IMG/VR virus record: IMGVR_UViG_3300018041_000003 | Length of the DNA: 20,000 nt | Source: an uncultured virus (IMG/VR IMGVR_UViG_3300018041_000003) | Lineage: Duplodnaviria > Heunggongvirae > Uroviricota > Caudoviricetes | Strand: one strand, 5' to 3' | Part shown: positions 9,491-20,000 of the stretch, piece by piece | Layout: every line of letters starts with the position of its first letter | How positions within the stretch are numbered: the first letter of the stretch is position 1 | The notes under the pieces: model-generated | The model's input: the letters and a program-made list of their open reading frames with translations, nothing else | What the model was told of the DNA's origin: nothing | Databases searched by the model: none | Program-made: the position numbers and the translations under genes

Positions 9491-9718
9491 ATGGATAGTT
9501 CACAAGTTGTAGATATATGGAATCTTTTTAAAGAGCATACAGATAAGAAACATCTCGAAACACTTGCTGAAAGGTTTGTTGATCTTTTAGCAGATTATGG
9601 TGTTGGTGATGATGCGCTTAAAGATGCCATTGGTAACTGCGATTTCCTTGATTCAGCAATTAACTATTATCTTGATATAGATGAAGAACTAGTTTCAGAC
9701 GATGATGATTGGGATTAA
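9491..9718 (+). CDS. small acidic hypothetical protein (75 aa)
   Basis: GAGGAG SD; fills the gap between uvsX and uvsY; acidic tail DDDDWD. Confidence 0.8.
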   Translation: MDSSQVVDIWNLFKEHTDKKHLETLAERFVDLLADYGVGDDALKDAIGNCDFLDSAINYYLDIDEELVSDDDDWD

Positions 9719-9720
9719 TA

Positions 9721-10173
9721 ATGTGGTATAGCAAAATATCAAAAGATATTAGCCATATTCCAGATGCTATATCATACTTCGAAGCAGAACTTATTGAAGC
9801 AAAAAAAGAAATCCGAATTTATGGAAATCTAGAGAAGGCCGCGGCAGAAATGCCCGGCCTTGTCGAGCATCGTTTTAATCAATTACAAGAACTTGAAGCA
9901 ATACTTGAGTATCTTAATATCGAACTTCGTAGACTTCGTAGTAGTTTTTTTAAAAAATATCTTGAAAACTATCAACGTGCATTAAGCAGTCGTGACGTTG
10001 AAAAATACGTTGACGGTGAGGCAGACGTTGTTGACTACGAAAAGATTATTAACGAGTTTGCTCTTATGCGTAATAAATGGTTAGGAATCTCGAAAGGACT
10101 TGATCAGAAGCAATGGCAGATTACAAACATTACTAAGTTACGTGTAGCGGGCATGGAAGATGCATCAATTTAA
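9721..10173 (+). CDS. uvsY: recombination mediator UvsY-like (start revised to ATG 9721)
   Basis: 150-aa helical protein with LSSRDVEKYVDGEAD and KGLDQKQWQITNITKLRVAG, matching the UvsY C-terminal pattern; downstream of uvsX. Confidence 0.8.
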   Translation: MWYSKISKDISHIPDAISYFEAELIEAKKEIRIYGNLEKAAAEMPGLVEHRFNQLQELEAILEYLNIELRRLRSSFFKKYLENYQRALSSRDVEKYVDGEADVVDYEKIINEFALMRNKWLGISKGLDQKQWQITNITKLRVAGMEDASI

Positions 10174-10708
10174 CAATGAACTAGATACCCTTATGTCCAA
10201 AGTTAAAAAAGGACAAATGGAAAGATCCGAATATGCTTACATTGCCGAAAGACTTGGAAATAAAAATTTATTAATATTTGGTACTGGACATGATTCTCAA
10301 TTTTGGAGACACGCTAATACCGGTACTACAATTTTTCTAGAACATGATCCGGAATGGGTACTAGAAAAAACTAAAGATGTATTCTTAATTGAATATACAT
10401 CAAACATAAAAGATTATCAAAAACTATTAGACGAATACAATTCTAATAACTTTTCTAACTTAGAAATTACCTTACCTTCTGTTGTTTATGAGCACGAATG
10501 GGACGTAATATTTGTTGACGGACCTCCAGGAAATAAAAAGAAAAGTATCGGACGTATGCAAAGTATCTATATGGCTAATAAATTAGCAAATAAGAATACT
10601 GATATATTTGTACATGATTGTAATCGTATTGTCGAAGACGTTTATACTAAGGCATTCTTTAACATACAAGAAGAATTAGTTAAACTTAGACACTGTAGGA
10701 AAAAATAA
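10160..10708 (+). CDS. SAM-dependent methyltransferase resembling DUF579/GXM-IRX15 polysaccharide O-methyltransferases
   Basis: NLLIFGTGHDS..W, TIFLEHD..W, LP..VYE.EWDVIFVDGP.G, GRMQSIY.A, TDIFVHDCNR.VE...KAF and LRH are colinear with the DUF579 motifs as recalled. Confidence 0.8.
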   Translation: MHQFNNELDTLMSKVKKGQMERSEYAYIAERLGNKNLLIFGTGHDSQFWRHANTGTTIFLEHDPEWVLEKTKDVFLIEYTSNIKDYQKLLDEYNSNNFSNLEITLPSVVYEHEWDVIFVDGPPGNKKKSIGRMQSIYMANKLANKNTDIFVHDCNRIVEDVYTKAFFNIQEELVKLRHCRKK

Positions 10709-11448
10709 TGAATCGTATAATTTCTTTTGATCCTCGAGATCTAACATTTATTACAACTGCTAATAACTTATATGTTAATTTCGTAGAACCGTTTATATAC
10801 TTTTGTAAAACTAGTAATCCTGGTTGTAAGATTGAAATTTGGGTTGATGACTTAAATGCAGTATCAAAAATAAATGATCCAGATGTTAGAATTCATCAAT
10901 TACCAAACACTTATCATGTTGCAACATATAGATACATTTTAACACCAACTTGGGAAACTAAGTATTACTATATTACTGATGTAGATATAATGCATACTGA
11001 ATTTGTTCAACCATTTCATTTAATGCTTATGCAAGAATCTGGGTTGCCATTTAGTAATATTATACGCAACAAAAAAGGTCAACATAATCGTATGAGTGGT
11101 TTACATTTTGTAAAATCTCAATGGTACGAAGATACAAAAAATATAAGACCGCGAATTGAACCTAAAGGACAAGACGAAGAAATGTTATATCAGATTGCAA
11201 ATAGCATTTATGATTTAGGAAAAGTTACTAAAGGTTTATCTAATAGACCTGTACAAGGAATTCATTGTTCGGTAGGACGTAATCCTAGAGATAAACAATC
11301 GTGGGAACTTACATCACAACGATCGGCTTATTTTGTTGATGCAATTTTAAAACATGGAACATTTAATCCATGGTTTGAAGAAAAAGTATGTAGGCCAATA
11401 ATAGGCGAAGATACATTTGATAAAATGAGAAAACGTAGACGGATATGA
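10708..11448 (+). CDS. putative GT-A fold glycosyltransferase-like protein
   Basis: YYYITDVDI DxD motif after a hydrophobic strand, RMSGLHFV, DEEMLY; TAATG coupling. Confidence 0.55.
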   Translation: MNRIISFDPRDLTFITTANNLYVNFVEPFIYFCKTSNPGCKIEIWVDDLNAVSKINDPDVRIHQLPNTYHVATYRYILTPTWETKYYYITDVDIMHTEFVQPFHLMLMQESGLPFSNIIRNKKGQHNRMSGLHFVKSQWYEDTKNIRPRIEPKGQDEEMLYQIANSIYDLGKVTKGLSNRPVQGIHCSVGRNPRDKQSWELTSQRSAYFVDAILKHGTFNPWFEEKVCRPIIGEDTFDKMRKRRRI

Positions 11449-12056
11449 AGTTCAACATTGTAGTTGCTAGTGACATTAATTTAAAACGGTTTATTAATCC
11501 TTGCATTGACAGTATTAAGAAAATAGGATATGATCCAATGGTGTATGATCTTGGCGGACTAGGATATGGTAAGCCTTTTGAAAGTACAACTAGCGATAAA
11601 GCACTTCAGAAATTTCCTAAAAAGCCATTTGTTATTAAAGATGCATTACAACGTATTCCAAAAGATAGTTGGCTTGCATGGATTGATATTGATTGCATTA
11701 TGCAACACCCTATAGACGATGCTATTGGGGAGTATGACGTAGGAGTAACCTTTAGAAAAAATCATTTAAACTCTGGTGTAAATTTTTGGAAACACAACAG
11801 TAGAGCATTACACTTTCTAGATGTTTGGAGTAAAGAAGCATTACTAGTAGGTGGTGATCAAAACGGTCTTAATAGGATATGTAAAATTACATCTGGTTCA
11901 AGTGTTAACACTATACTTGATATTGAAGGTGCTAAAGTAAAAGTTTTTGATTCAAGAGTTTATAATAATTTCTTTTTCAAGAAAGATCAAAGTAACGCAA
12001 GAATACTACATTACAAAAGTAAGTTTAGAAATAGGTTTCCCTTTGATGAAGTATGA
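11445..12056 (+). CDS. putative nucleotide-diphospho-sugar transferase (GT-A; GT77/GT34-like)
   Basis: YDLGG, KKPFVIKDAL, LAWIDID (DxD), LNSGVNFW, GDQNGLN, YNNF, ILHYK; ATGA coupling. Confidence 0.72.
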   Translation: MKFNIVVASDINLKRFINPCIDSIKKIGYDPMVYDLGGLGYGKPFESTTSDKALQKFPKKPFVIKDALQRIPKDSWLAWIDIDCIMQHPIDDAIGEYDVGVTFRKNHLNSGVNFWKHNSRALHFLDVWSKEALLVGGDQNGLNRICKITSGSSVNTILDIEGAKVKVFDSRVYNNFFFKKDQSNARILHYKSKFRNRFPFDEV

Positions 12057-12630
12057 TTTTATAGAAATAGGAACTAGTAATTTTCATACATTGATTGAAA
12101 ATGCTAATAATGAAATTGGTATTTCGATCGAACCTATGAAAAAATATCTAGATCAGTTGCCAACTCCAAGTAATGTTATTAAGTTAAATTGTGCAATTAG
12201 TTTTGACGGTAGTAATAATTTGATTGATTTTTACTATATTGATCCTGATACTATTAAGCACCTCAACTTAAAACCTTTTATGAAAGGGTGTAACTCAATA
12301 GGAAACTATCATCCTATGCACATAAAATATAATGTACAAGAACACGTAACTATAGACAAGGTAGAACAACGTTCTTTAAAATCTGTTCTTGAAGAATATA
12401 ATGTTACCGAATTAGATTACTTAAAAATTGATACAGAAGGTGGCGACTGTAAAATCATGCAACAACTATATAACATTAAATTCAAACCAAAAAAAATTAA
12501 GTTTGAAACAAACAGTCTAGCAAACCCAGATGATGTTGCACATATACTAGATATATTTTCTAAAATTGGCTATGATATTAGTTGGGATAATAAAGCCAAA
12601 CGAGACACTATCTTAACATTGCATAGTTAA
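12046..12630 (+). CDS. FkbM-family SAM-dependent methyltransferase (start revised to ATG 12046)
   Basis: DFIEIGT, GISIEP, LNCAIS, LDYLKIDTEGGDCKIM, IKFE motifs. Confidence 0.85.
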   Translation: MKYDFIEIGTSNFHTLIENANNEIGISIEPMKKYLDQLPTPSNVIKLNCAISFDGSNNLIDFYYIDPDTIKHLNLKPFMKGCNSIGNYHPMHIKYNVQEHVTIDKVEQRSLKSVLEEYNVTELDYLKIDTEGGDCKIMQQLYNIKFKPKKIKFETNSLANPDDVAHILDIFSKIGYDISWDNKAKRDTILTLHS

Positions 12631-12633
12631 ATA
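12628..12633 (+). promoter_or_regulatory. late promoter box TAAATA, 6 nt before ATG 12640
   Basis: TTAAATA-TTGCTG-ATG overlapping the previous stop codon; no SD. Confidence 0.55.
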
Positions 12634-12639
12634 TTGCTG

Positions 12640-13386
12640 ATGAAACAGCAACTGATTAACCATATATTAGATAAATTCCCTGAAACATACGAACTGCAAA
12701 AGCAGTATAGAAGTCATCCTGACTACAGTTTATTAACATTAGAAAACTTTATTCCTCAAGATTTAGTTACACTAATGGCTAAAGAACTTGACGATATTCC
12801 ATTAGAAGACTGTAAGCATTTTACAAGAGCAGGATCGTGTATGTATGAATTTAACAATGTAGATCGTACACCTGTACAAGACGCTGTTGTACACGCACTA
12901 CACAGTGGTACATTTATTAAATGGTTACAAGAAGTTACAGACACAGTTGATTTAATTCCTGATCCGCATCTCATTGGTGCAGGATATATGAAATCATTTA
13001 CTGGCGATAGTTTAAAAGTTCACTCAGATTTTAACTGGAATGAACAACTTAGACTGCATCGTATGTTAAGTGTAGTAATATATCTCAATGATGAATGGCA
13101 AGATGATTGGGGAGGACAGTTGCAGTTTTATGATACAAAAAGACAAAAGGTACATACTAAAGTACCAGTAGGACCAGGCAACTGTGTAATATGGAACTAC
13201 AATAATTTTGCATTCCATGGTTACCCAGAACCAATGACTTGTCCCGAAGGTGTAAGCAGAAAGGGTATTAGGTTTTTCTATTACGTCAGTAATGCCAAGC
13301 ATGATGACAAACATCCACCACATCGTAGTTTATATTGGTATGATGAAAAAACAGGAACGCCATACGATCAGCCATGGAACAAATAA
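12640..13386 (+). CDS. 2OG-Fe(II) oxygenase (prolyl-hydroxylase-like)
   Basis: PDPHLIGAG, HSD (HxD), IYLNDEWQDDWGGQLQF, distal FHG and the 2OG-binding R in SRKGIRFFYY. Confidence 0.9.
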   Translation: MKQQLINHILDKFPETYELQKQYRSHPDYSLLTLENFIPQDLVTLMAKELDDIPLEDCKHFTRAGSCMYEFNNVDRTPVQDAVVHALHSGTFIKWLQEVTDTVDLIPDPHLIGAGYMKSFTGDSLKVHSDFNWNEQLRLHRMLSVVIYLNDEWQDDWGGQLQFYDTKRQKVHTKVPVGPGNCVIWNYNNFAFHGYPEPMTCPEGVSRKGIRFFYYVSNAKHDDKHPPHRSLYWYDEKTGTPYDQPWNK

Positions 13387-13892
13387 ACATTACATTACCT
13401 GAATTAAATTATATACGTTTGCCATATAGAGCAATGGATAACGTTTCAGTTCAGGGTAGAGCAACTGCATTTGAAAGTCAAAACAAACGATATCATCTTG
13501 CTGGATTTACAAAAGAAAACACAAAGTATGAACAATGTTTTCCTGTAACAGATGATTACGTACAGTTTGGTGCTACACTTTTTGATAGATGCACTGTAGC
13601 AGTAATGAAACAGATGCCTGGACAAACACTACCAAGTCATGTAGACACATTTTACAAAATTTCAAACGATTACAGTGTAGACCCGAAAGACTGTATTCGT
13701 GTAAACATCTTCCTTGAAGATTGGAAATCGGGTCATTATTTTGAAATAAATGAAAATCCGGTCTTGCAATGGAAGCGTGGTGATGCTATAATAATAGAAA
13801 AAGATGAACCGCATTTGAGTGCTAACAATGGTATGGTGCCTAAGTACACTATGCAAGTAACTGGAGTAAAAAATGAATTTAAGGGGTGCTAA
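13374..13892 (+). CDS. cupin / Fe(II)-2OG oxygenase-like protein (Asp/Asn beta-hydroxylase-like)
   Basis: MPGQTLPSHVD (HxD), RVNIFLEDWKSGH, WKRGD, PHLSANNG, KYTMQVTG. Confidence 0.72.
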   Translation: MEQINITLPELNYIRLPYRAMDNVSVQGRATAFESQNKRYHLAGFTKENTKYEQCFPVTDDYVQFGATLFDRCTVAVMKQMPGQTLPSHVDTFYKISNDYSVDPKDCIRVNIFLEDWKSGHYFEINENPVLQWKRGDAIIIEKDEPHLSANNGMVPKYTMQVTGVKNEFKGC

Positions 13893-14745
13893 ACCTGTAC
13901 CTGATAATAAGGTAAAACAGTTTATTGAAAGTTTAAATCCTGTAAAAGATTTATACAATCCAAAACTTCCACAAGAATTTAAGTACGAATTTGTAGATTG
14001 GATTTTATCAAGCGAATTTAATTTTATTAAAGGTATTGAAGAGTTTCCAGACATTACACTATGTAACGGAACTGTGCAAGCATTTGATCATTTCCATTAT
14101 AGGCACAAAGAAAAACGTTTTAGATTTTTTAAAGGCGAGTTTATGTATCATCAGGCTTGTCTAAAAAACGGAAGTCAATTTGAATGGATTAATGATAAAC
14201 CATTAATGGAAGGTGATGCACTTATACTAAGTGTCCCTTTCAGTGATAGAGGTATTCAACACCCTGCAACAGATATGTTGTTGTTAAATGCAGAACAGTT
14301 TAATATTCCTGTACTACTTGATTTTGCTTATTATCCTTGTACAAAAAATATTAATTTAAATCTTAGCAACTACCCAGCAGTAGAAACGATTACATTTAGT
14401 ATTAGTAAAGCATTCTACGGTGCAGAGTTTTTAAGAGTAGGTGTTCGTCTTGAACGTGCAAACACAGACGACGGCATTGATGTATTCAATTCTGTTGATA
14501 TGCACAATAGGATAGATTTAAGTATAGCAAGTAGTTTAATTAAAACCTTTCCGGTTGATTGGAACTGGAAAACATACACTGATGTATACAATCAAGTTTG
14601 TGAAGAAAAGAATCTTCAACTAACAGATTGTATTATGTTTGGTCTTGGCGGAGATGAGTACAAAGAGTATAATCGAGGCGGAGAAGTCAATCGTGTTTGC
14701 ATTAGTGATTTAATAGGAGAGAAAGTAAATGACAATAGTAAGTAG
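13873..14745 (+). CDS. PLP-dependent fold-type I enzyme (aminotransferase/decarboxylase-like)
   Basis: GTVQAF, SVPF, PVLLDFAY (PLP-binding Asp), FSISKAF (Schiff-base Lys), LRVG; GGAG SD. Confidence 0.75.
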   Translation: MNLRGAKPVPDNKVKQFIESLNPVKDLYNPKLPQEFKYEFVDWILSSEFNFIKGIEEFPDITLCNGTVQAFDHFHYRHKEKRFRFFKGEFMYHQACLKNGSQFEWINDKPLMEGDALILSVPFSDRGIQHPATDMLLLNAEQFNIPVLLDFAYYPCTKNINLNLSNYPAVETITFSISKAFYGAEFLRVGVRLERANTDDGIDVFNSVDMHNRIDLSIASSLIKTFPVDWNWKTYTDVYNQVCEEKNLQLTDCIMFGLGGDEYKEYNRGGEVNRVCISDLIGEKVNDNSK

Positions 14746-15790
14746 TCATAATGATTGGGATCCGTTAGAGGAAGTATTTGTAGGTATTGCAGATCATGCA
14801 CGTATTCCTACAGTGGATAAATCAACACACAGTTTCGGATTTGCTGATTGTAAATGGGAACACATTAAGGATCTTGAAGGACCTAGTCCAGAATGGGTAA
14901 TTAATGAAGCAAACGAGGATTTAGACAATTTTGCAAAAGTATTATCTGATTTAGGTGTTAAAGTAAGACGCCCCGAATCAATTGACCATTCAAAGGAGTT
15001 TGGCTCTCCTGACTGGAAAACAACAGGGTGGTACACGTATTGTCCGCGTGATTTATTGTTGCCTTTAGATAATCTTATTATTGATTGTCCCGGCGCAATG
15101 AGAGCAAGGCAGTACGAAACAACTGCGTACAGAGAATTTTTGTATGAAGCAATGCAAGGCGGTAGTGAATGGATTAGTGCACCACGTCCAAGACTACTTG
15201 ATGAAAGTTATCAGTTAGAGGATTTAAGTATTCCAACACTTGTAAACAAAGAGATTGTTTTTGACGCACCTAACATTGTACGCCTTGGTAAAGATTTATT
15301 GTATCAAGTAAGCAACAGTGGAACTAAATTAGGTTACGAATGGCTTAAAACTATTGTTGAACCAAGAGGTTATAAGTTGCATCTTGCTGAAGGCTTTTAT
15401 AGTTATTCACACTTTGACTCAACTGTTATTCCTTTACGTCCGGGATTAGTATTGTTTAATGGTGATAGAATTAGACCAGACTTTTATCCTAAAATCTTTG
15501 AGTCATGGGACAAAATTTATTTCCCAGGTGATAAAGTAATCGACATTGGTACAAACTTACCAAATGGTGTATCACCTTGTAGTAAGTATATCGGTTTGAA
15601 CTTTATGAGTGTAAATGAAAACTTGGTAATCTGTGATGAGAATCAAGAAGAACTACGTAAAGAGTTAGACAAACACGGTATTGAAACTATCGGATTGCCT
15701 ATGCGTCAAGCACGTACACTAAGTGGCGGCTTCCATTGTGTTACTTTAGATACTAAACGTAAAGGCACATTGGAAAGTTACTTTGACTAA
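14729..15790 (+). CDS. amidinotransferase (StrB1 inosamine-phosphate / glycine amidinotransferase family)
   Basis: SHNDWDPLEEVFVG, GVKVRRP, YCPRD, catalytic Asp in FDAPN, His in SHFDST and Cys in GGFHCVTLD; AGGAG SD. Confidence 0.93.
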   Translation: MTIVSSHNDWDPLEEVFVGIADHARIPTVDKSTHSFGFADCKWEHIKDLEGPSPEWVINEANEDLDNFAKVLSDLGVKVRRPESIDHSKEFGSPDWKTTGWYTYCPRDLLLPLDNLIIDCPGAMRARQYETTAYREFLYEAMQGGSEWISAPRPRLLDESYQLEDLSIPTLVNKEIVFDAPNIVRLGKDLLYQVSNSGTKLGYEWLKTIVEPRGYKLHLAEGFYSYSHFDSTVIPLRPGLVLFNGDRIRPDFYPKIFESWDKIYFPGDKVIDIGTNLPNGVSPCSKYIGLNFMSVNENLVICDENQEELRKELDKHGIETIGLPMRQARTLSGGFHCVTLDTKRKGTLESYFD

Positions 15791-16646
15791 ACGCGGACAC
15801 CATATACCCAATCTTGAATATATGATCACAACCAGTTGCGATCTGGCTTGTCCAGGTTGTGACCGGTTTATTGATCACGGACATCCGTTTGTAGAGTCGT
15901 ATGAAGACATAGTTGCTAATATGGAAAAATGGTTCTGTCGATTAGATCCAGACCACATAACTATTATTGGTGGCGAACCTCTTCTTCATCCACGGATTTA
16001 TGATATCCTAAAAGAAGCAAGAAGGATATTTGATCATGCAACTATTGAAGTATACACAAATGGATTTTTATTACCTAAAAGGCCCGATATACTTAAGGTA
16101 TTAAAAAAAATTGGTCGTGCAAAAATTAGTTGTAGTATACACAATAAAAATCCAGAAGTAAGAAAATTAATTGAAAAAAATTTATGGGATTCGTTTTATA
16201 GTAAAGGACAATGGTCAATAGTAAGTCCTATTGCTCATAAACAAGACGGAGTAACTGTTGAAGTAACTGATCCTACCGAAGGTGGTTGGTATGATTATCG
16301 ACGCAATGTAAATGGCAAACTTAAACCTTGGAACGATCAACAGCCTTCTAAGAGTTACAGCAAGTGTGGTGTTTCTACATATCCTATTATCTATAAAGGT
16401 AAGTTATACAAGTGCCCACCTATTAGTATGTTAAAGACACACCTTGAAAAATTTGATATGTTAGACGATCCTGATTGGAAACCATATTTAAACTACAAAG
16501 GATTAGATGTAGAGTGTGATGACGAGGTATTAGAAGCATTTGTAAAAAATATCTTCCATCCACATCAAATTTGTTCTATGTGTCCTGCTAATCCAGAACT
16601 AAAACCGCAGGAAGAAGCAGTAATTAAAAACGTGAAAATACTATGA
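15783..16646 (+). CDS. radical SAM enzyme with C-terminal twitch/SPASM-like cysteines (TTG start; alternative ATG 15822)
   Basis: CDLACPGC (CxxxCxxC), IIGGEPLLHP, VYTNG, C...GKLYKCP, ICSMCP. Confidence 0.9.
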   Translation: MTKRGHHIPNLEYMITTSCDLACPGCDRFIDHGHPFVESYEDIVANMEKWFCRLDPDHITIIGGEPLLHPRIYDILKEARRIFDHATIEVYTNGFLLPKRPDILKVLKKIGRAKISCSIHNKNPEVRKLIEKNLWDSFYSKGQWSIVSPIAHKQDGVTVEVTDPTEGGWYDYRRNVNGKLKPWNDQQPSKSYSKCGVSTYPIIYKGKLYKCPPISMLKTHLEKFDMLDDPDWKPYLNYKGLDVECDDEVLEAFVKNIFHPHQICSMCPANPELKPQEEAVIKNVKIL

Positions 16647-17797
16647 AAACAGTTCCTTTAATAACAATGGACAATAGTTCCAGAAGCCTTGGAACTGTTA
16701 TTGAAAACTTCAAAGGCATTCTTAACTTTGAAGGTTATAATAATAAGATACTAGAGGATATTGAACATCTTGTAGTATTTTTTGAATATGTTGGAGACAA
16801 TGATCATACATTTAAAACATTTACTAACTTTTTTGAAACATATAAAATTCCGACCTTTCTTGTTATCGATGACTCATACGAAGGACTTACAGACTCTACA
16901 TTTCTTACGTTGGTAGAAGAGACTGTTAAAAAGAATCCTTATATTAAAGATTGGGTTATTTTAACTAATAACAAAAAGTTAAAGAGTCCGAACAAAATAT
17001 ATTTTAATGTACAATTACACTTAGACCGATATGACGGCATTGACATTAATAAACATATTGACACAGACTGGAACGGTAATAGTAATTTACGTAAGAAAAA
17101 GTTTTTATGCTTAAACAGACAAGAACGATTGCATAGGTTAATAACAACAGACTTCTTGTTAAAAAATGATATTGCTAAACATACATATCTTAGTTGTCCA
17201 TTAGGTAATTACAAATACGTCCTTGATGGAGAATTTGATCAACCTGAATATAAAAAATATTTAGATAAATCATTACAAGGCACAACCCTAAGTCAAGAGT
17301 CAATTAACCGTCTTAAAGAAAACTTACCTATTAGTTTAGACTTAGATGAAACAACATATAAATCTATGTCTAGAAATCTGCCAGACGGTAGTCAATACTA
17401 TGCTGAAAGTTATTTTAGTATTATTACAGAAGGTGACTACGATGACGACAATAGAGAAGCATTTACAGAGAAAGTATTAAAATGTTTCTTGTTCAAGCAT
17501 CCGTTTATTGTTATTGGATTGCGTAACACACTACAGCAATTACGCGACTTAGGATTCATAACTTTTAATGATGTTATTGACGAAAGATATGATGCAATGT
17601 CATTTGCTAGGCATCGGTTTGAATTAGCAACAGCAGAAATTAAGAAACTAAACAGTTATAATATTCACGAATTAAGAGACTTATATAATGAGTTACAACC
17701 TATTCTTAATTATAACAGAGAACACTATCTACGATTGTTTAATCAAAAACAACCAGTAGAGTTAATACATAGAATTAAGAAGTTCGTAAATGATTAA
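16643..17797 (+). CDS. hypothetical protein, possibly glycosyltransferase-like (384 aa)
   Basis: KKFLCLNR..R.HR and SIITE...FTEKVLK...HPFIVIG...LRDLGFITF...DERYD; the TEK segment recalls GT10-type donor-binding motifs (weak); ATGA coupling. Confidence 0.55.
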   Translation: MKTVPLITMDNSSRSLGTVIENFKGILNFEGYNNKILEDIEHLVVFFEYVGDNDHTFKTFTNFFETYKIPTFLVIDDSYEGLTDSTFLTLVEETVKKNPYIKDWVILTNNKKLKSPNKIYFNVQLHLDRYDGIDINKHIDTDWNGNSNLRKKKFLCLNRQERLHRLITTDFLLKNDIAKHTYLSCPLGNYKYVLDGEFDQPEYKKYLDKSLQGTTLSQESINRLKENLPISLDLDETTYKSMSRNLPDGSQYYAESYFSIITEGDYDDDNREAFTEKVLKCFLFKHPFIVIGLRNTLQQLRDLGFITFNDVIDERYDAMSFARHRFELATAEIKKLNSYNIHELRDLYNELQPILNYNREHYLRLFNQKQPVELIHRIKKFVND

Positions 17798-18713
17798 TAA
17801 TAAATTCTTTGTTAGGCACATTACACTGCTTTGCTACATCAATTAATTGTTTCTGTTCTTCCTTGTCAAGCAGTGCTATATCAAGATGTAAAGGATATGT
17901 TAATACGTTTATATACCAACGTACATCTTGAAAACGTCTGCAAAAGTCATTTAGTTTTTCTAAACCCATATAATTGTTTTTGTGTAACACAGTATTAAAT
18001 TCTAAATTAAAACTTTTGTCGTAAACCCAGTCAATAAACTTAACCACGTCGGCCCACTTAGTACCGCCTCTAACTTTTTCTGCAAGTTCTCCAGTGCCGT
18101 CGATGCTTAGAATAAATGTAACATCTTTGTATTGATTTAGTTCCTTAACTATATCGTCATTAGGAATAAATGTTCCATTCGTATTGTATATTACCGTTAC
18201 TTTACTTTTGTGTTTAATTTGATATAACAATCGCAGATGTCTATCTGTAATTAATGGCTCACCGCCTAAAAATAAAATCTTTTCAATTGTATCAGGAACG
18301 TTGGTTACTGCATCAATCTCCATTAACTTGTGTTTTGGTGCTCCATAAATGTTTTTTTCTTTTACAATCCAACTTGTACTAAACTCTGAATTACATCCGT
18401 CGCAAGTTAGGTTGCACAAGTTATCAAACCCAATTTCTAAAAATTTAAGTTCAACGGAATTAGTATCATATTTTTCATTAAATTCTTGGCGTAGACTTTT
18501 GTGTTGTATTGATTCTTCATAATAACATTTTTCACAACCTGGTATACGTTCGCCTGACTCGCTTTGTTGTCGAAGTTCCTTGTATGCATCAGAGTGCAAT
18601 ATGTTGTCTACATTTCCATCAAACGTATCAATAGAATGTTTAAATCGGCAACAAGGATAGACTCTATTGCCACTACGTATATTAGTGTGTTTCCAAAATG
18701 CACTACACTTCAT
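17775..18713 (-). CDS. radical SAM enzyme with N-terminal SPASM/twitch-like domain
   Basis: N-terminal C...YPCC...GCEKCY, then NLCNLTCDGC (CxxxCxxC), FLGGEPL, YNTNGT, LSIDG. Confidence 0.9.
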   Translation of the reverse strand: MKCSAFWKHTNIRSGNRVYPCCRFKHSIDTFDGNVDNILHSDAYKELRQQSESGERIPGCEKCYYEESIQHKSLRQEFNEKYDTNSVELKFLEIGFDNLCNLTCDGCNSEFSTSWIVKEKNIYGAPKHKLMEIDAVTNVPDTIEKILFLGGEPLITDRHLRLLYQIKHKSKVTVIYNTNGTFIPNDDIVKELNQYKDVTFILSIDGTGELAEKVRGGTKWADVVKFIDWVYDKSFNLEFNTVLHKNNYMGLEKLNDFCRRFQDVRWYINVLTYPLHLDIALLDKEEQKQLIDVAKQCNVPNKEFIINHLRTS

Positions 18714-19119
18714 AATATGGAATCCATTTATCGTCTAAATCTTTTTGTAAGCATTTGGTTGCTAAATCTAGAAACGGTTTATAATCTATTTTGGTTTTAT
18801 CTTCATTACGTAATGGATCAAAAACAAATATGTTGCTTCTGTTTGTAATGTCTAATTCATCTGTATGTATGTTTAAGAACACCGGTTTGTTGGTGTCTAA
18901 GACGCATTTTAAAGCGCCTACACTGCATATAACATAGTCAGCACTATCAAACATAGCCTCTAGGTCTTTCTGGTGCTTATAAGACGTTTTAACAAGGTTT
19001 ACACGTTCTTGTAACCAATTTGTAAGATGTGTTTCTAATACATTATCGTTAAGAGGCAACATCAATACATAACTAAATTTATTTTGGTTTGCATCTTTGA
19101 ATAATTTTTCAATGTTCAT
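18703..19119 (-). CDS. hypothetical protein (138 aa)
   Basis: ORF coupled to both minus-strand neighbours (ATGA overlap and 11-bp overlap). Confidence 0.75.
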   Translation of the reverse strand: MNIEKLFKDANQNKFSYVLMLPLNDNVLETHLTNWLQERVNLVKTSYKHQKDLEAMFDSADYVICSVGALKCVLDTNKPVFLNIHTDELDITNRSNIFVFDPLRNEDKTKIDYKPFLDLATKCLQKDLDDKWIPYYEV

Positions 19120-19709
19120 TTCTTAATGATTTCTAAATCAAATGTAATTATACTTAGAGGATTTTCACTTTGATTTGGCGTAGTGCTTATATCAAAATAT
19201 CCAGGAATAAAATATATTTCACCCTCGGGCATAGGCAAATATGTTTGCCAACTATTAAGTGCATTTCTATTTTCTATAGGAATACTATTGTAGTAATATT
19301 CACTAGCAGGATTATCAACAACTAATCCTCCACTCTTAGGATCACTAGTTACAAAATACATACCGGTATAAAAACTTTGGGTATTTTTCTTTTTAGTTAA
19401 ACACCCACCTGGCATAATACATTGTATCGTCGACCGTGTTATGGCAATATGCTGACCTTGTTTAATATCAAATTCTTTAAAAATAGTTTTACAGAATTCT
19501 TTAATTTCTTCACTTTCACTAATATGCTTAAATGCATTATTAGTTTGGAAGTTGTCTTTACTTTGCCAAGTGTTAATATGTTGAACATTTGTATTGTTTG
19601 ATTGCTTTTGGAAATCTTCAACCAGTCGTCCAAACATAGCCTTTACGTCAGCGTGTTTAGCAAACGTACTGTGATACATAGTGTTTACAAAAATATTCAA
19701 TTGATCCAT
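19116..19709 (-). CDS. 2OG-Fe(II) oxygenase-like protein (TIGR02466-like) lacking metal ligands; start revised to ATG 19709
   Basis: WQS, PGG, YTGMYFV..P..GGLVVDNP, PEGEIYFIPGY, TPNQSE...IITFD follow the family pattern, but the His ligands are absent. Confidence 0.7.
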   Translation of the reverse strand: MDQLNIFVNTMYHSTFAKHADVKAMFGRLVEDFQKQSNNTNVQHINTWQSKDNFQTNNAFKHISESEEIKEFCKTIFKEFDIKQGQHIAITRSTIQCIMPGGCLTKKKNTQSFYTGMYFVTSDPKSGGLVVDNPASEYYYNSIPIENRNALNSWQTYLPMPEGEIYFIPGYFDISTTPNQSENPLSIITFDLEIIKK

Positions 19710-19714
19710 ATACA

Positions 19715-19720
19715 TACTTA
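19715..19720 (-). promoter_or_regulatory. late promoter variant TAAGTA, 5 nt before the minus-strand ATG at 19709
   Basis: Minus strand reads ATAAGTA-TGTAT-ATG, the same geometry as the TAAATA sites. Confidence 0.6.
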
Positions 19721-19761
19721 TTTTACGCTCAAATACGAATAGTCTAGTCTGGCTGAAAATG

Positions 19762-19767
19762 TAAATA
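19762..19767 (+). promoter_or_regulatory. late promoter box TAAATA, 5 nt before ATG 19773
   Basis: GTAAATA-TCTAC-ATG; no SD. Confidence 0.7.
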
Positions 19768-19772
19768 TCTAC

Positions 19773-20000
19773 ATGAAAGTAGTATTAGTAACAGGTGGTT
19801 TTGATCCACTACACTCAGGGCATATTGCCTATCTTAAAGAAGCAAAAAAGTTAGGCGACAAACTTATTGTTGGTGTAAACAGTGATGCCTGGCTAACACG
19901 CAAGAAAGGCAGACCTTTTATGCCTTTTGAAGAGCGTGTTGCATTAATACGAGAAATGAAAATTGTAGATAAAGTAATCGGATTTGACGATGCAGATAAT
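19773..20000 (+). CDS. cytidylyltransferase-family nucleotidyltransferase (TagD/RfaE-like), 5' part; not in the ORF track
   Basis: Hand translation MKVVLVTGGFDPLHSGHIAYLKEAKKLGDKLIVGVNSDAWLTRKKGRPFMPFEERV... contains the HxGH motif and VGVNSD; runs off the window. Confidence 0.92.
   Translation, partial: MKVVLVTGGFDPLHSGHIAYLKEAKKLGDKLIVGVNSDAWLTRKKGRPFMPFEERVALIREMKIVDKVIGFDDADN

Follow-up and report, generated by a model that had tools for sequence, protein, structure and literature searches.

A pyridoxal-phosphate enzyme and a StrB1-type amidinotransferase are paired in a proposed tailoring island of an uncultured T4-like phage

Why would a phage carry, in overlapping genes, a pyridoxal 5'-phosphate (PLP)-dependent enzyme and an L-arginine amidinotransferase? 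The question is raised by positions 13873 to 15790 of a 20,000-nucleotide stretch of DNA from an uncultured member of the Caudoviricetes (IMG/VR record IMGVR_UViG_3300018041_000003); the whole stretch is referred to here as the window. Our preferred interpretation, which we consider an even call, is that the two enzymes are a working sub-module of a phage tailoring island that would oxidise, aminate and amidinate a sugar-type unit and then transfer it. It starts from what can be observed directly: the enzyme classes, their intact catalytic residues, the coupling of the two genes, their conservation, the purifying selection acting on them and their presence in RNA libraries. What is new is the pairing inside an island of radical S-adenosylmethionine (SAM) enzymes, oxygenases and glycosyltransferases (GTs), a variant of aminocyclitol- or aminosugar-type tailoring.

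The two enzymes and their coupling

The downstream gene of the pair encodes a protein whose sequence places it, at full length, in the StrB1 subfamily of the pentein superfamily, in agreement with the first-pass annotation of this DNA. When PDB sequences were searched with phmmer, StrB1 of Streptomyces griseus (1bwd) was matched with an E value of 4.1e-90 and 305.9 bits (residues 2-351 on 2-346), ~110 bits above SxtG (1.6e-56), HsvA (3.1e-56) and human and pig AGAT (about 1e-54), whose scores were about 190-195 bits and whose E values fell overall between 1e-53 and 1e-56. Identity to StrB1, counted on the printed alignment, is ~50%. The two proteins are alike in length (353 versus 348 aa), in their CPRD, HxD and GGFHC motifs and in a pentein fold, the last implied by homology. 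The architecture is likewise compact and StrB1-like, with few gaps relative to StrB1, whereas alignment to the 383-aa SxtG requires several insertions on the SxtG side. The subfamily was assigned from PDB bit scores. No hydrolase of the superfamily (ADI or DDAH) appeared in the PDB match list at E values up to 10, and the Pfam ADI model scored 14.2 bits, below its cut-off. This bare detection by the ADI model accounts for the mixed automatic names in public sources, among them 'glycine amidinotransferase', 'dimethylarginine dimethylaminohydrolase' and 'inosamine-phosphate amidinotransferase 1'; the last of these (NCBI) and KEGG K04340 are assigned by similarity only.

The Asp-His-Cys triad described earlier as intact proved to be so. 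None of the 32 aligned relatives departs from D108, H228 or C337, nor from R107, R127, E130, D230, R326 or H336; D179 is kept in 27 of them, and the alignment takes in Bdellovibrionia homologues at 28-32% identity. In the alignments to StrB1 and SxtG, C337 (within GGFHC), H228/D230 and D108 fall on the corresponding motifs of those enzymes. Because it is invariant across 32 sequences, we regard the catalytic set as genuine and conserved. Relatives of the amidinotransferase are common in metagenomes (2621 at an E value of 1e-10 or better).

The upstream gene was harder to place. Its 290-aa product gave no match above cut-off in Pfam (none at E values up to 0.1), PHROGs or NCBIfam, and searches of PDB sequences returned best E values of 0.67 (phmmer, single sequence) and 0.14 (hmmsearch, profile). 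The earlier assignment to fold type I is instead borne out by structure prediction and by cofactor-site conservation. An AlphaFold2 model built from a 41-sequence alignment (mean predicted local distance difference test, pLDDT, 93.5; predicted template modelling score, pTM, 0.91) found as its best Foldseek match the histidinol-phosphate aminotransferase of T. maritima (1uu2; E value 3.6e-12), together with L-threonine-O-3-phosphate decarboxylase and C-S lyases, over a range of 1e-12 to 1e-9. In VIA-align, the model reached Z scores of 21-22 over 265-280 residues with many enzymes of the class-I aminotransferase fold; these scores are tied, and the fold is therefore silent on the reaction. Arginine-acting PLP enzymes topped the VIA list and were rejected as evidence, ~50 entries being tied within 1 Z unit.

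Conservation in the PLP family follows the predicted cofactor site. The 41-sequence alignment shows no variation at D150, S176, S178, K179 (the predicted Schiff-base lysine), R188, R268 or R274. In a broader set of 150 sequences, made up of the query and 149 family representatives after clustering at 50% identity, the residue is retained in 149 for D150, in 148 each for S176 and K179, and in 138 for R188, with lysine in 8 more. In this site, the Asp would face the pyridine nitrogen of the cofactor, and the Ser and Arg its phosphate. The PLP motifs align with those of the aminotransferase 3if2, in a hidden Markov model (HMM) alignment that was itself non-significant. The window protein matched neither PF00155 (Aminotran_1_2) nor PF01041 (DegT/DnrJ/EryC1/StrS, the StsC type); two relatives, L062:7920-8939 (24.5 bits) and P0336 (25.6 bits), exceed the PF00155 cut-off of 19.7 bits. 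The model thus suggests a divergent, unannotated class-I family of fold type I.

This family is large, unnamed and mostly viral. The window protein has 267 close metagenome relatives, the few named ones being called 'hypothetical protein', and a full HMM search recovered 754 representatives (after clustering at 50%) at an E value of 1e-3 or better, 205 of them at 1e-30 or better. A pattern scan of one genome each from 185,579 prokaryote species found the family in 8 loci. One of the 8 is on a 183-kb contig labelled as a Haliscomenobacter metagenome-assembled genome (MAG; L062), where two PLP-like paralogues have SegE, a T4 baseplate protein and an SMC/gp46-like ATPase as neighbours; the contig evidently comes from a T4-like phage and was binned into a bacterial MAG.

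A class-I fold of the amino-acid type, with a conserved C-terminal arginine, is also what would be expected if the pair acted on free amino acids or polyamines. The pair would then make or remodel a small molecule related to arginine (homoarginine, a non-proteinogenic guanidino amino acid or an amidinated polyamine), to serve as a metabolite, an inhibitor or a DNA counter-ion independently of the glycosyltransferases. The VIA list, headed by RohP, MppP and Plu4 (tied within 1 Z unit with ~50 others), offers a lead only in this direction. Acceptors of the appropriate kind are described in the available text of two papers, in which AmtA uses lysine and HsvA uses polyamines (PMC4887976, PMC12371840). 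The amidinotransferase, however, scores higher against StrB1 than against HsvA, SxtG and AGAT (306 bits versus about 190-195); genes for glycosyltransferases and sugar nucleotides accompany the module in each of three phage lineages; and some islands with no amidinotransferase carry the PLP domain fused to radical SAM domains. We therefore hold small-molecule chemistry of this kind to be unlikely, if still worth keeping in view.

The link between the two genes is evident from their arrangement. Their open reading frames (ORFs) overlap by 17 nt, and a GGAG lies ~10 nt 5' of the amidinotransferase ATG, both inside the 3' end of the PLP gene. The first-pass annotation had proposed co-occurrence in viral metagenomes as a check on the pair, and we followed this in 55 viral loci retrieved with amidinotransferase patterns (46 distinct amidinotransferase DNA sequences). 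The 52 loci with at least 900 nt upstream of the amidinotransferase were testable for pairing (L039 lies outside), and 51 of them have a PLP-like gene upstream on the same strand: within 60 nt in 37 loci, at 61-1000 nt in 13 and farther away in 1. At L052, the PLP C-terminus is present at the cut end. Pairing holds in distant viral loci (L045-L050 and L054), where identity is 55-66% for the amidinotransferase and 32-37% for the PLP-like protein. Bdellovibrionia MAG contigs (up to 917 kb) also carry a PLP-like gene beside, and divergent from, an amidinotransferase-like gene of 25-28% identity, with 4-7 paralogous radical SAM genes of the N-terminal-twitch (N-twitch) type and Asp/Asn-hydroxylase-family genes nearby. 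That the pairing recurs among such distant sequences, and with the genes arranged differently, argues more strongly for coupling than the locus counts do.

The same data bear on whether the two genes are functionally linked at all, or are simply neighbours in a hypervariable island that serve unrelated processes. The islands are mosaic, the four genes upstream of the module being present in only 5 of the 55 loci, and each gene of the pair can be found without the other (the PLP-like gene in L069, the amidinotransferase in L051). Chance proximity nevertheless fits poorly with a pair kept on one strand in 51 of 52 testable loci, with pairing that recurs, differently arranged, in Bdellovibrionia contigs (25-37% identity), and with genes that overlap and have an internal ribosome-binding site; we regard it as the least probable of the explanations considered here, and very improbable in itself.

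Sequence divergence indicates how long the pair has been in place. Relative to L011, identity at third codon positions is 58.5% for the amidinotransferase and 53.3% for the PLP-like gene, and amino-acid identity is 90% and 66%, respectively; both genes are long resident and under purifying selection. At several loci (L011, L019 and others), the amidinotransferase retains 88-90% amino-acid identity where all neighbours retain 40-66%, with equal synonymous divergence. It is thus under constraint that is unusually strong for an island gene and far above that on any neighbour.

In each of four metatranscriptome libraries, a contig of at least 99% identity crosses the junction between the PLP and amidinotransferase genes. 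One of 1586 nt also bridges the junction between the amidinotransferase and the radical SAM gene that follows it, and one of 1268 nt bridges the PLP gene and the two genes before it (2OG_A and cupin_B; Table 1). These contigs lend weak support to expression of the region and have no bearing on the transcript start at 12640 given in the first-pass annotation. A complex prediction for the amidinotransferase and the PLP enzyme returned no answer (score 0.00) and speaks neither for nor against binding.

Radical SAM partners and related modules

Natural fusions point to the proteins with which the PLP family works. In P0339 and P0344, an N-twitch radical SAM domain (324 and 311 bits to NF033640) precedes the PLP domain, and P0348 has the two in reverse order (257 bits). 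A PhyH dioxygenase precedes the PLP domain in P0336, and a methyltransferase follows it in P0315. All of these fusions keep D150, S176, K179 and R188. The radical SAM-PLP type occurs as an uninterrupted 813-aa ORF in three viral contigs (for example, L069:7001-9442). L069 itself encodes at least six N-twitch radical SAM domains, along with two proteins of the Asp/Asn-hydroxylase family; a 1417-aa ORF on the same contig (L069:2758-7011) contains two tandem N-twitch radical SAM domains after ~520 residues of unmatched sequence.

By the fusions and L069, the PLP enzyme is therefore tied most closely, in function, to the radical SAM family. Only some islands have the amidinotransferase in addition, and, because the PLP family also occurs without it, the pair forms one part of a larger system and does not stand by itself. 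The scheme suggested in the first-pass annotation (oxidise, aminate, amidinate) is consistent with the radical SAM-PLP and PhyH-PLP fusions; the oxidant in it may be a radical SAM enzyme and not the 2-oxoglutarate (2OG) oxygenases.

The window has two radical SAM enzymes. The one that had been seen to follow the pair (rSAM1) is present as described (Table 1), and its CX3CX2C motif is kept in 25 of 26 homologues, the remaining one being gapped at the motif; its top PDB rows are low-complexity matches to designed repeat proteins. The other (rSAM2) retains C100, C104 and C107 in 29 of 29 homologues and is, by its match to that model, an N-terminal-twitch radical SAM protein of the NF033640 family. 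Paralogues of this family fill the related viral and Bdellovibrionia islands. Neither the name nor the description of the NF033640 model gives a reaction, whereas fusion to the PLP domain is seen in the present analysis.

Modules that join an amidinotransferase to radical SAM genes are already known, from the text available on Campylobacter phages (2010) and a cyanomyovirus (2025), and the earlier statement that amidinotransferases are not standard genes of T4-like phages needs amending, since they are annotated in both (PMC2853527, PMC12801897). The Campylobacter phages CP220 and CPt10 have clusters in which a putative glycine amidinotransferase gene accompanies five genes for radical SAM proteins; no function was given for them (Timms et al. 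2010, PMC2853527). Like the window phage, they are T4-like and carry the amidinotransferase among about five radical SAM genes. Behind the amidinotransferase gene and one radical SAM gene, CP220 has two that are sugar-transferase-like; in CPt10, a protein annotated with a 'threonine-phosphate decarboxylase domain' is encoded nearby. The phages differ from ours in host and habitat, and the amidinotransferases are only 29-31% identical. This CPt10 protein, a threonine-phosphate decarboxylase (CobD) by annotation, was rejected as a member of the PLP family (hhalign probability 1.2%).

The second precedent is the cyanomyovirus S-SCSM2R. Under the label 'antibiotic synthesis genes', its description groups a radical SAM maturase with an AHBA-synthase-like PLP protein and an inosamine amidinotransferase (PMC12801897), a reading that, judging from the text available, rests on annotation only. 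Its amidinotransferase (ORF309) is 40.5% identical to that of the window and adjoins a cupin_B-like 2OG protein and an rSAM1-like protein (30%); five genes annotated as glycosyltransferases (ORF302-304, 307 and 310) lie nearby, and a fold-type-I PLP protein, the AHBA-synthase-like ORF305, is annotated close to them. ORF305 was rejected as a PLP-family member (hhalign probability 0.4%), and tblastn with the PLP-like protein against the CP220, CPt10 and S-SCSM2R loci found nothing at E values up to 1.

Comparable islands have been reported from marine phages. According to Zaragoza-Solas et al. (2020, PMC7029224), the host recognition cluster and lipopolysaccharide (LPS)-gene islands of pelagimyophages and cyanomyophages contain Asp/Asn beta-hydroxylases, radical SAM cassettes and glycosyltransferases of the GT8 and rfaE types. 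Those islands, too, are hypervariable, belong to marine T4-like phages and hold the same kinds of glycosyltransferase, radical SAM and hydroxylase genes. Unlike ours, they lie between VrlC and gp14 rather than between uvsY and a helicase gene, and the accessible text of PMC7029224 mentions an amidinotransferase 0 times.

The island and its setting

The genes of the island are listed in Table 1. Two HxD...H proteins precede the pair, as had been noted, and both have intact metal ligands: H130, D132 and H195 of 2OG_A are kept in 26 of 26 homologues, and H89, D91 and H147 of cupin_B in 29 of 29. An Atlas lead for cupin_B (clusters with PF05118 in 19-21% of members) suggests, with its sequence, that it is probably an Asp/Asn-hydroxylase-like oxygenase. 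In four of the five distant loci (L045, L046, L051 and L054), an ORF of ~380-420 aa with an Mtd_N (major tropism determinant) domain lies directly downstream of the module, which hints at a link to receptor-binding fibres.

These enzymes would equally suit the modification of proteins or peptides, in which residues of a protein of the phage or its host, such as a tail fibre, would be the substrate of the hydroxylases and radical SAM enzymes, and the amidinotransferase would turn a side-chain amine (of lysine, of ornithine or one introduced for the purpose) into a guanidine; hydroxylated residues might also gain sugars. Such a role is suggested by the prolyl-hydroxylase-like character of 2OG_A (PF13640), by members of the Asp/Asn beta-hydroxylase family that recur in the distant loci, L069 and the Bdellovibrionia clusters, by the N-twitch radical SAM proteins, whose secondary matches in NCBIfam are largely peptide maturases, and by the Mtd_N-domain neighbour. 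Conversely, no obvious precursor-peptide gene was present among ORFs of at least 50 aa, although no search was aimed at one; the amidinotransferase is ~50% identical to one whose substrate is a small cyclitol phosphate; and ORF266 of S-SCSM2R does not match the window amidinotransferase, which has one matching place in that record. We know of no obvious precedent for a PLP aminotransferase that acts on a protein substrate, and we count this against modification of proteins, which appears unlikely overall.

The gene after rSAM1 encodes a protein of a virus-only family that is predicted, on its AlphaFold2 model (pLDDT 87.4), to have the two-Rossmann-domain GT-B fold. Its top VIA matches have Z scores of 13.5, 13.4 and 12.8 over 270-300 residues, and every match listed is a GT-B enzyme; they include 6eji (13.5), the alpha-1,3-fucosyltransferase of H. 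pylori (2nzx; 13.4) and the alpha-glucosyltransferase of T4 (12.0). Its sequence family (GT10 or another) is a lead only, with an Atlas score of 0.81. Farther downstream, the fusion of a cytidylyltransferase-like domain to a mannose-6-phosphate-isomerase-type cupin is followed by a GT8 gene (PF01501, 26 bits); the fusion is present in 27 and the GT8 gene in 26 of the 55 loci.

T4 alpha- and beta-glucosyltransferases are among the structural matches of the GT-B protein (Z 11-12, tied with many others), which raises the question of whether the island places an amino- or guanidino-bearing (glycosyl) group on a base of the phage DNA and so evades restriction. PLP and radical SAM enzymes take part in known pathways of thymidine hypermodification, and the Campylobacter phages with an amidinotransferase and radical SAM module presumably have modified DNA. 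The nearest structural neighbours of the GT-B model, however, are not DNA enzymes, and the 42.6-kb contig to which the window belongs has no hydroxymethylase, DpdA-type base-exchange or DNA-kinase-type gene, an absence that weighs little because the contig is a fragment. Hypermodification of DNA seems to us a distant prospect.

Table 1. Predicted genes of the tailoring island in the window (locus counts refer to the 55 viral loci unless a smaller testable number is given).
Position	Strand	Predicted product	Details
10160..10708	+	IRX15/GXM-type methyltransferase, accessory	PF21729 109.6 bits; 5/55 loci, closest relatives only
10708..11448	+	accessory ORF	no Pfam or PHROG match; same 5/55 loci
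11445..12056	+	accessory nucleotide-diphospho-sugar transferase-like protein	PF03407 28.5 bits, cut-off 22
11947..12630	+	accessory FkbM-type methyltransferase	PF05050 41 bits
12634..13386	+	2OG-Fe(II) oxygenase 2OG_A, prolyl-hydroxylase-like	PF13640 56.7 bits; 44/55 loci
13374..13892	+	cupin_B, small cupin-type HxD...H protein	no Pfam match; 52/55 loci
13873..14745	+	compact fold-type-I PLP-dependent enzyme, class-I (HisC/CobD/AAT-like)	290 aa; K179 predicted Schiff-base lysine
14729..15790	+	StrB1-type L-arginine amidinotransferase	353 aa; catalytic D108, H228, C337
15783..16646	+	rSAM1, radical SAM protein with Cys-rich C-terminal part	287 aa; PF04055 61.6 bits; 42/47 testable loci
16643..17797	+	GT-B fold glycosyltransferase, virus-only family	384 aa; no Pfam match; 39/46 testable loci
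17775..18713	-	rSAM2, N-terminal-twitch radical SAM protein	NF033640 210 bits, cut-off 170; SPASM/twitch at residues 3-64
18703..19119	-	conserved ORF, no family	138 aa; no Pfam or PHROG match; 33/55 loci
19116..19715	-	2OG_C, putative 2OG-Fe(II) oxygenase	PF13759 20 bits, below 27-bit cut-off; 36/55 loci
19773..20000	+	cytidylyltransferase-like/mannose-6-phosphate-isomerase-type cupin fusion (start; runs off the window)	PF01467 42.7 bits, PF01050 60.6 bits

The four genes upstream of 2OG_A (10160-12630) are accessory, on the grounds of their presence in only 5 of the 55 loci. The PF21729 family, to which the first of them belongs, includes plant glucuronoxylan O-methyltransferases. The FkbM-type ORF overlaps the gene before it, and its true start is therefore probably 3' of 11947. 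Beyond the window, four consecutive ORFs of 266-337 aa on contig C1 (30973-34359) belong to no Pfam family. Three of these are kept in 24-29 of the 55 loci (the 29 for u266 counts four matches at 26-29% identity), and the fourth has matches at 20-31% identity only, possibly to paralogues; they may be further transferases.

The genomic setting is that of a T4-like phage. In the left half of the window, there are T4-type proteins, namely a head-closure protein, the large terminase, a gp32-type single-strand DNA-binding protein, UvsX and UvsY; a tail sheath protein, a deoxynucleoside monophosphate (dNMP) kinase and a ResIII/DEAD helicase are encoded in the contig flanks. From uvsY (9709-10173) onwards, the plus-strand ORFs are contiguous or overlapping, and three minus-strand ORFs follow. 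The tailoring island is ~16 kb long and lies between uvsY and the ResIII/DEAD helicase gene (window 9709-20000, contig C1 to 37132); in T4, uvsW adjoins uvsY. One RNA-library contig (run X16) has an extra T behind 9944, inside uvsY, which may be a strain variant or an assembly error. A scan for promoters and terminators found 37 promoter-like sites (54.7 expected from shuffled sequence) and 5 terminator-like sites (4.3 expected), so that neither count is informative.

Related IMG/VR records (those behind L009, L018, L054, L045 and L011) are 90-217 kb long and are rated as 25-59% complete, which implies genomes of roughly 360 kb. The photosystem gene psbA (PF00124) was not found in these five records, all of them fragments. 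DNA of the window is present in 20 salt-marsh or estuary runs, 6 of which are RNA libraries and 11 of which are marked as possible sources of this DNA. Among isolated phages, in a collection that may lack near-identical records, megablast found no match to 12600-16700. The window phage is an uncultured giant (jumbo) T4-like phage of salt marshes.

A proposed route to a guanidinylated unit

In the route that we propose for this island, a radical SAM enzyme or a 2OG/cupin oxygenase would oxidise a sugar-type unit (a sugar, sugar-phosphate or cyclitol) to a carbonyl. The class-I PLP enzyme would use K179 to transaminate this carbonyl to a primary amine, and the amidinotransferase would load the amidino group of L-arginine on C337, free ornithine and convert the amine to a guanidine. 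The cytidylyltransferase-like protein, GT-B and GT8 would then activate the unit and attach it to an acceptor, for which a virion fibre or capsid protein and a host envelope glycan are candidates. That a guanidino-bearing sugar-type unit is indeed put on the phage fibres or capsid or on the host envelope is a tentative extension of this scheme, and we think it may well not hold. A bolder variant is that a free aminoglycoside-like molecule is produced during infection. We also speculate that the preference of the PLP model for HisC and CobD, which are phosphate-ester enzymes, fits a phosphorylated acceptor like that of StrB1.

The order of steps has precedents. In 2-deoxystreptamine synthesis, the radical SAM dehydrogenase BtrN makes a ketone that the PLP enzyme BtrS aminates, and streptidine synthesis proceeds through oxidation, transamination, phosphorylation and StrB1 transamidination in turn, as set out in the available text of PMC13707489. 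Radical SAM oxidation followed by PLP amination resembles the present island, in which a twitch radical SAM domain is fused to or neighbours the PLP enzyme; in contrast to BtrN, the window family has its twitch domain at the N-terminus, and, in searches of PDB sequences, BtrN was not matched by rSAM1 or rSAM2. BtrS presumably belongs to another aminotransferase class. The sugar context further favours the proposed route: in addition to GT-B, the cytidylyltransferase/cupin fusion and GT8, related loci hold a separate DegT aminotransferase gene (L045; 323 bits) and a nucleoside-diphosphate-sugar epimerase/dehydratase gene (L046).

The resemblance to streptidine synthesis, drawn in the first-pass annotation, stands in part. 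The StrB1 kind of amidinotransferase and the sugar-related genes agree with it, whereas the PLP enzyme is of class I rather than the DegT/StsC type. The window enzyme differs from StrB1 in being encoded by a phage and in having radical SAM and 2OG enzymes as neighbours, and the window has no StsC-type aminotransferase, kinase, dehydrogenase or phosphatase.

Several findings weigh against the proposed route as a whole. No kinase, NAD dehydrogenase, phosphatase or inositol-phosphate synthase was found in the island and its flanks with Pfam, PHROG or NCBIfam (the sole kinase being that for dNMP, ~15 kb upstream); because a kinase, an NAD dehydrogenase and an inositol-phosphate synthase are lacking, the island does not encode a pathway to streptidine. 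By type, the PLP enzyme belongs with amino-acid enzymes rather than with the DegT sugar enzymes, and its R274 is kept in 110 of the 112 residues present at that column; such an arginine in class-I enzymes usually binds a carboxylate or phosphate. The DegT gene of L045 implies that the PLP-like enzyme may do a different job. 2OG enzymes, Asp/Asn-hydroxylase-like proteins and SPASM/twitch radical SAM enzymes are equally typical of protein or peptide modification, and, in searches of PDB sequences, rSAM1 and rSAM2 gave generic radical SAM matches and not BtrN. L069 has no amidinotransferase within 7 kb on either side of its PLP family member; since it combines PLP and N-twitch radical SAM domains without that enzyme, amination and amidination are separable. 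L051 is the reverse case, an amidinotransferase without a PLP-like gene. Lastly, the 55 loci are kin found with one query, so their counts are not independent samples, and RNA libraries can hold DNA, so the bridging contigs prove no single transcript.

If the proposed route is correct, its product would be, as far as the literature was searched, the first virus-made guanidinylated glycoconjugate; in none of the papers that our search turned up is a phage amidinotransferase given a product or substrate. It would also provide the first reaction for the N-terminal-twitch radical SAM family and for the 290-aa PLP family. The module is not rare, given 2621 relatives of the amidinotransferase and 754 representatives of the PLP family, and the fusions and conserved pairing give an order of steps that can be tested with soluble enzymes, and would offer a first foothold on the function of the N-twitch radical SAM proteins. 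Guanidino groups alter charge, hydrogen bonding and receptor binding. A phage that placed them on a glycan or on its own virion would, if this interpretation is true, have a new way to tune host recognition, superinfection exclusion or immune evasion.

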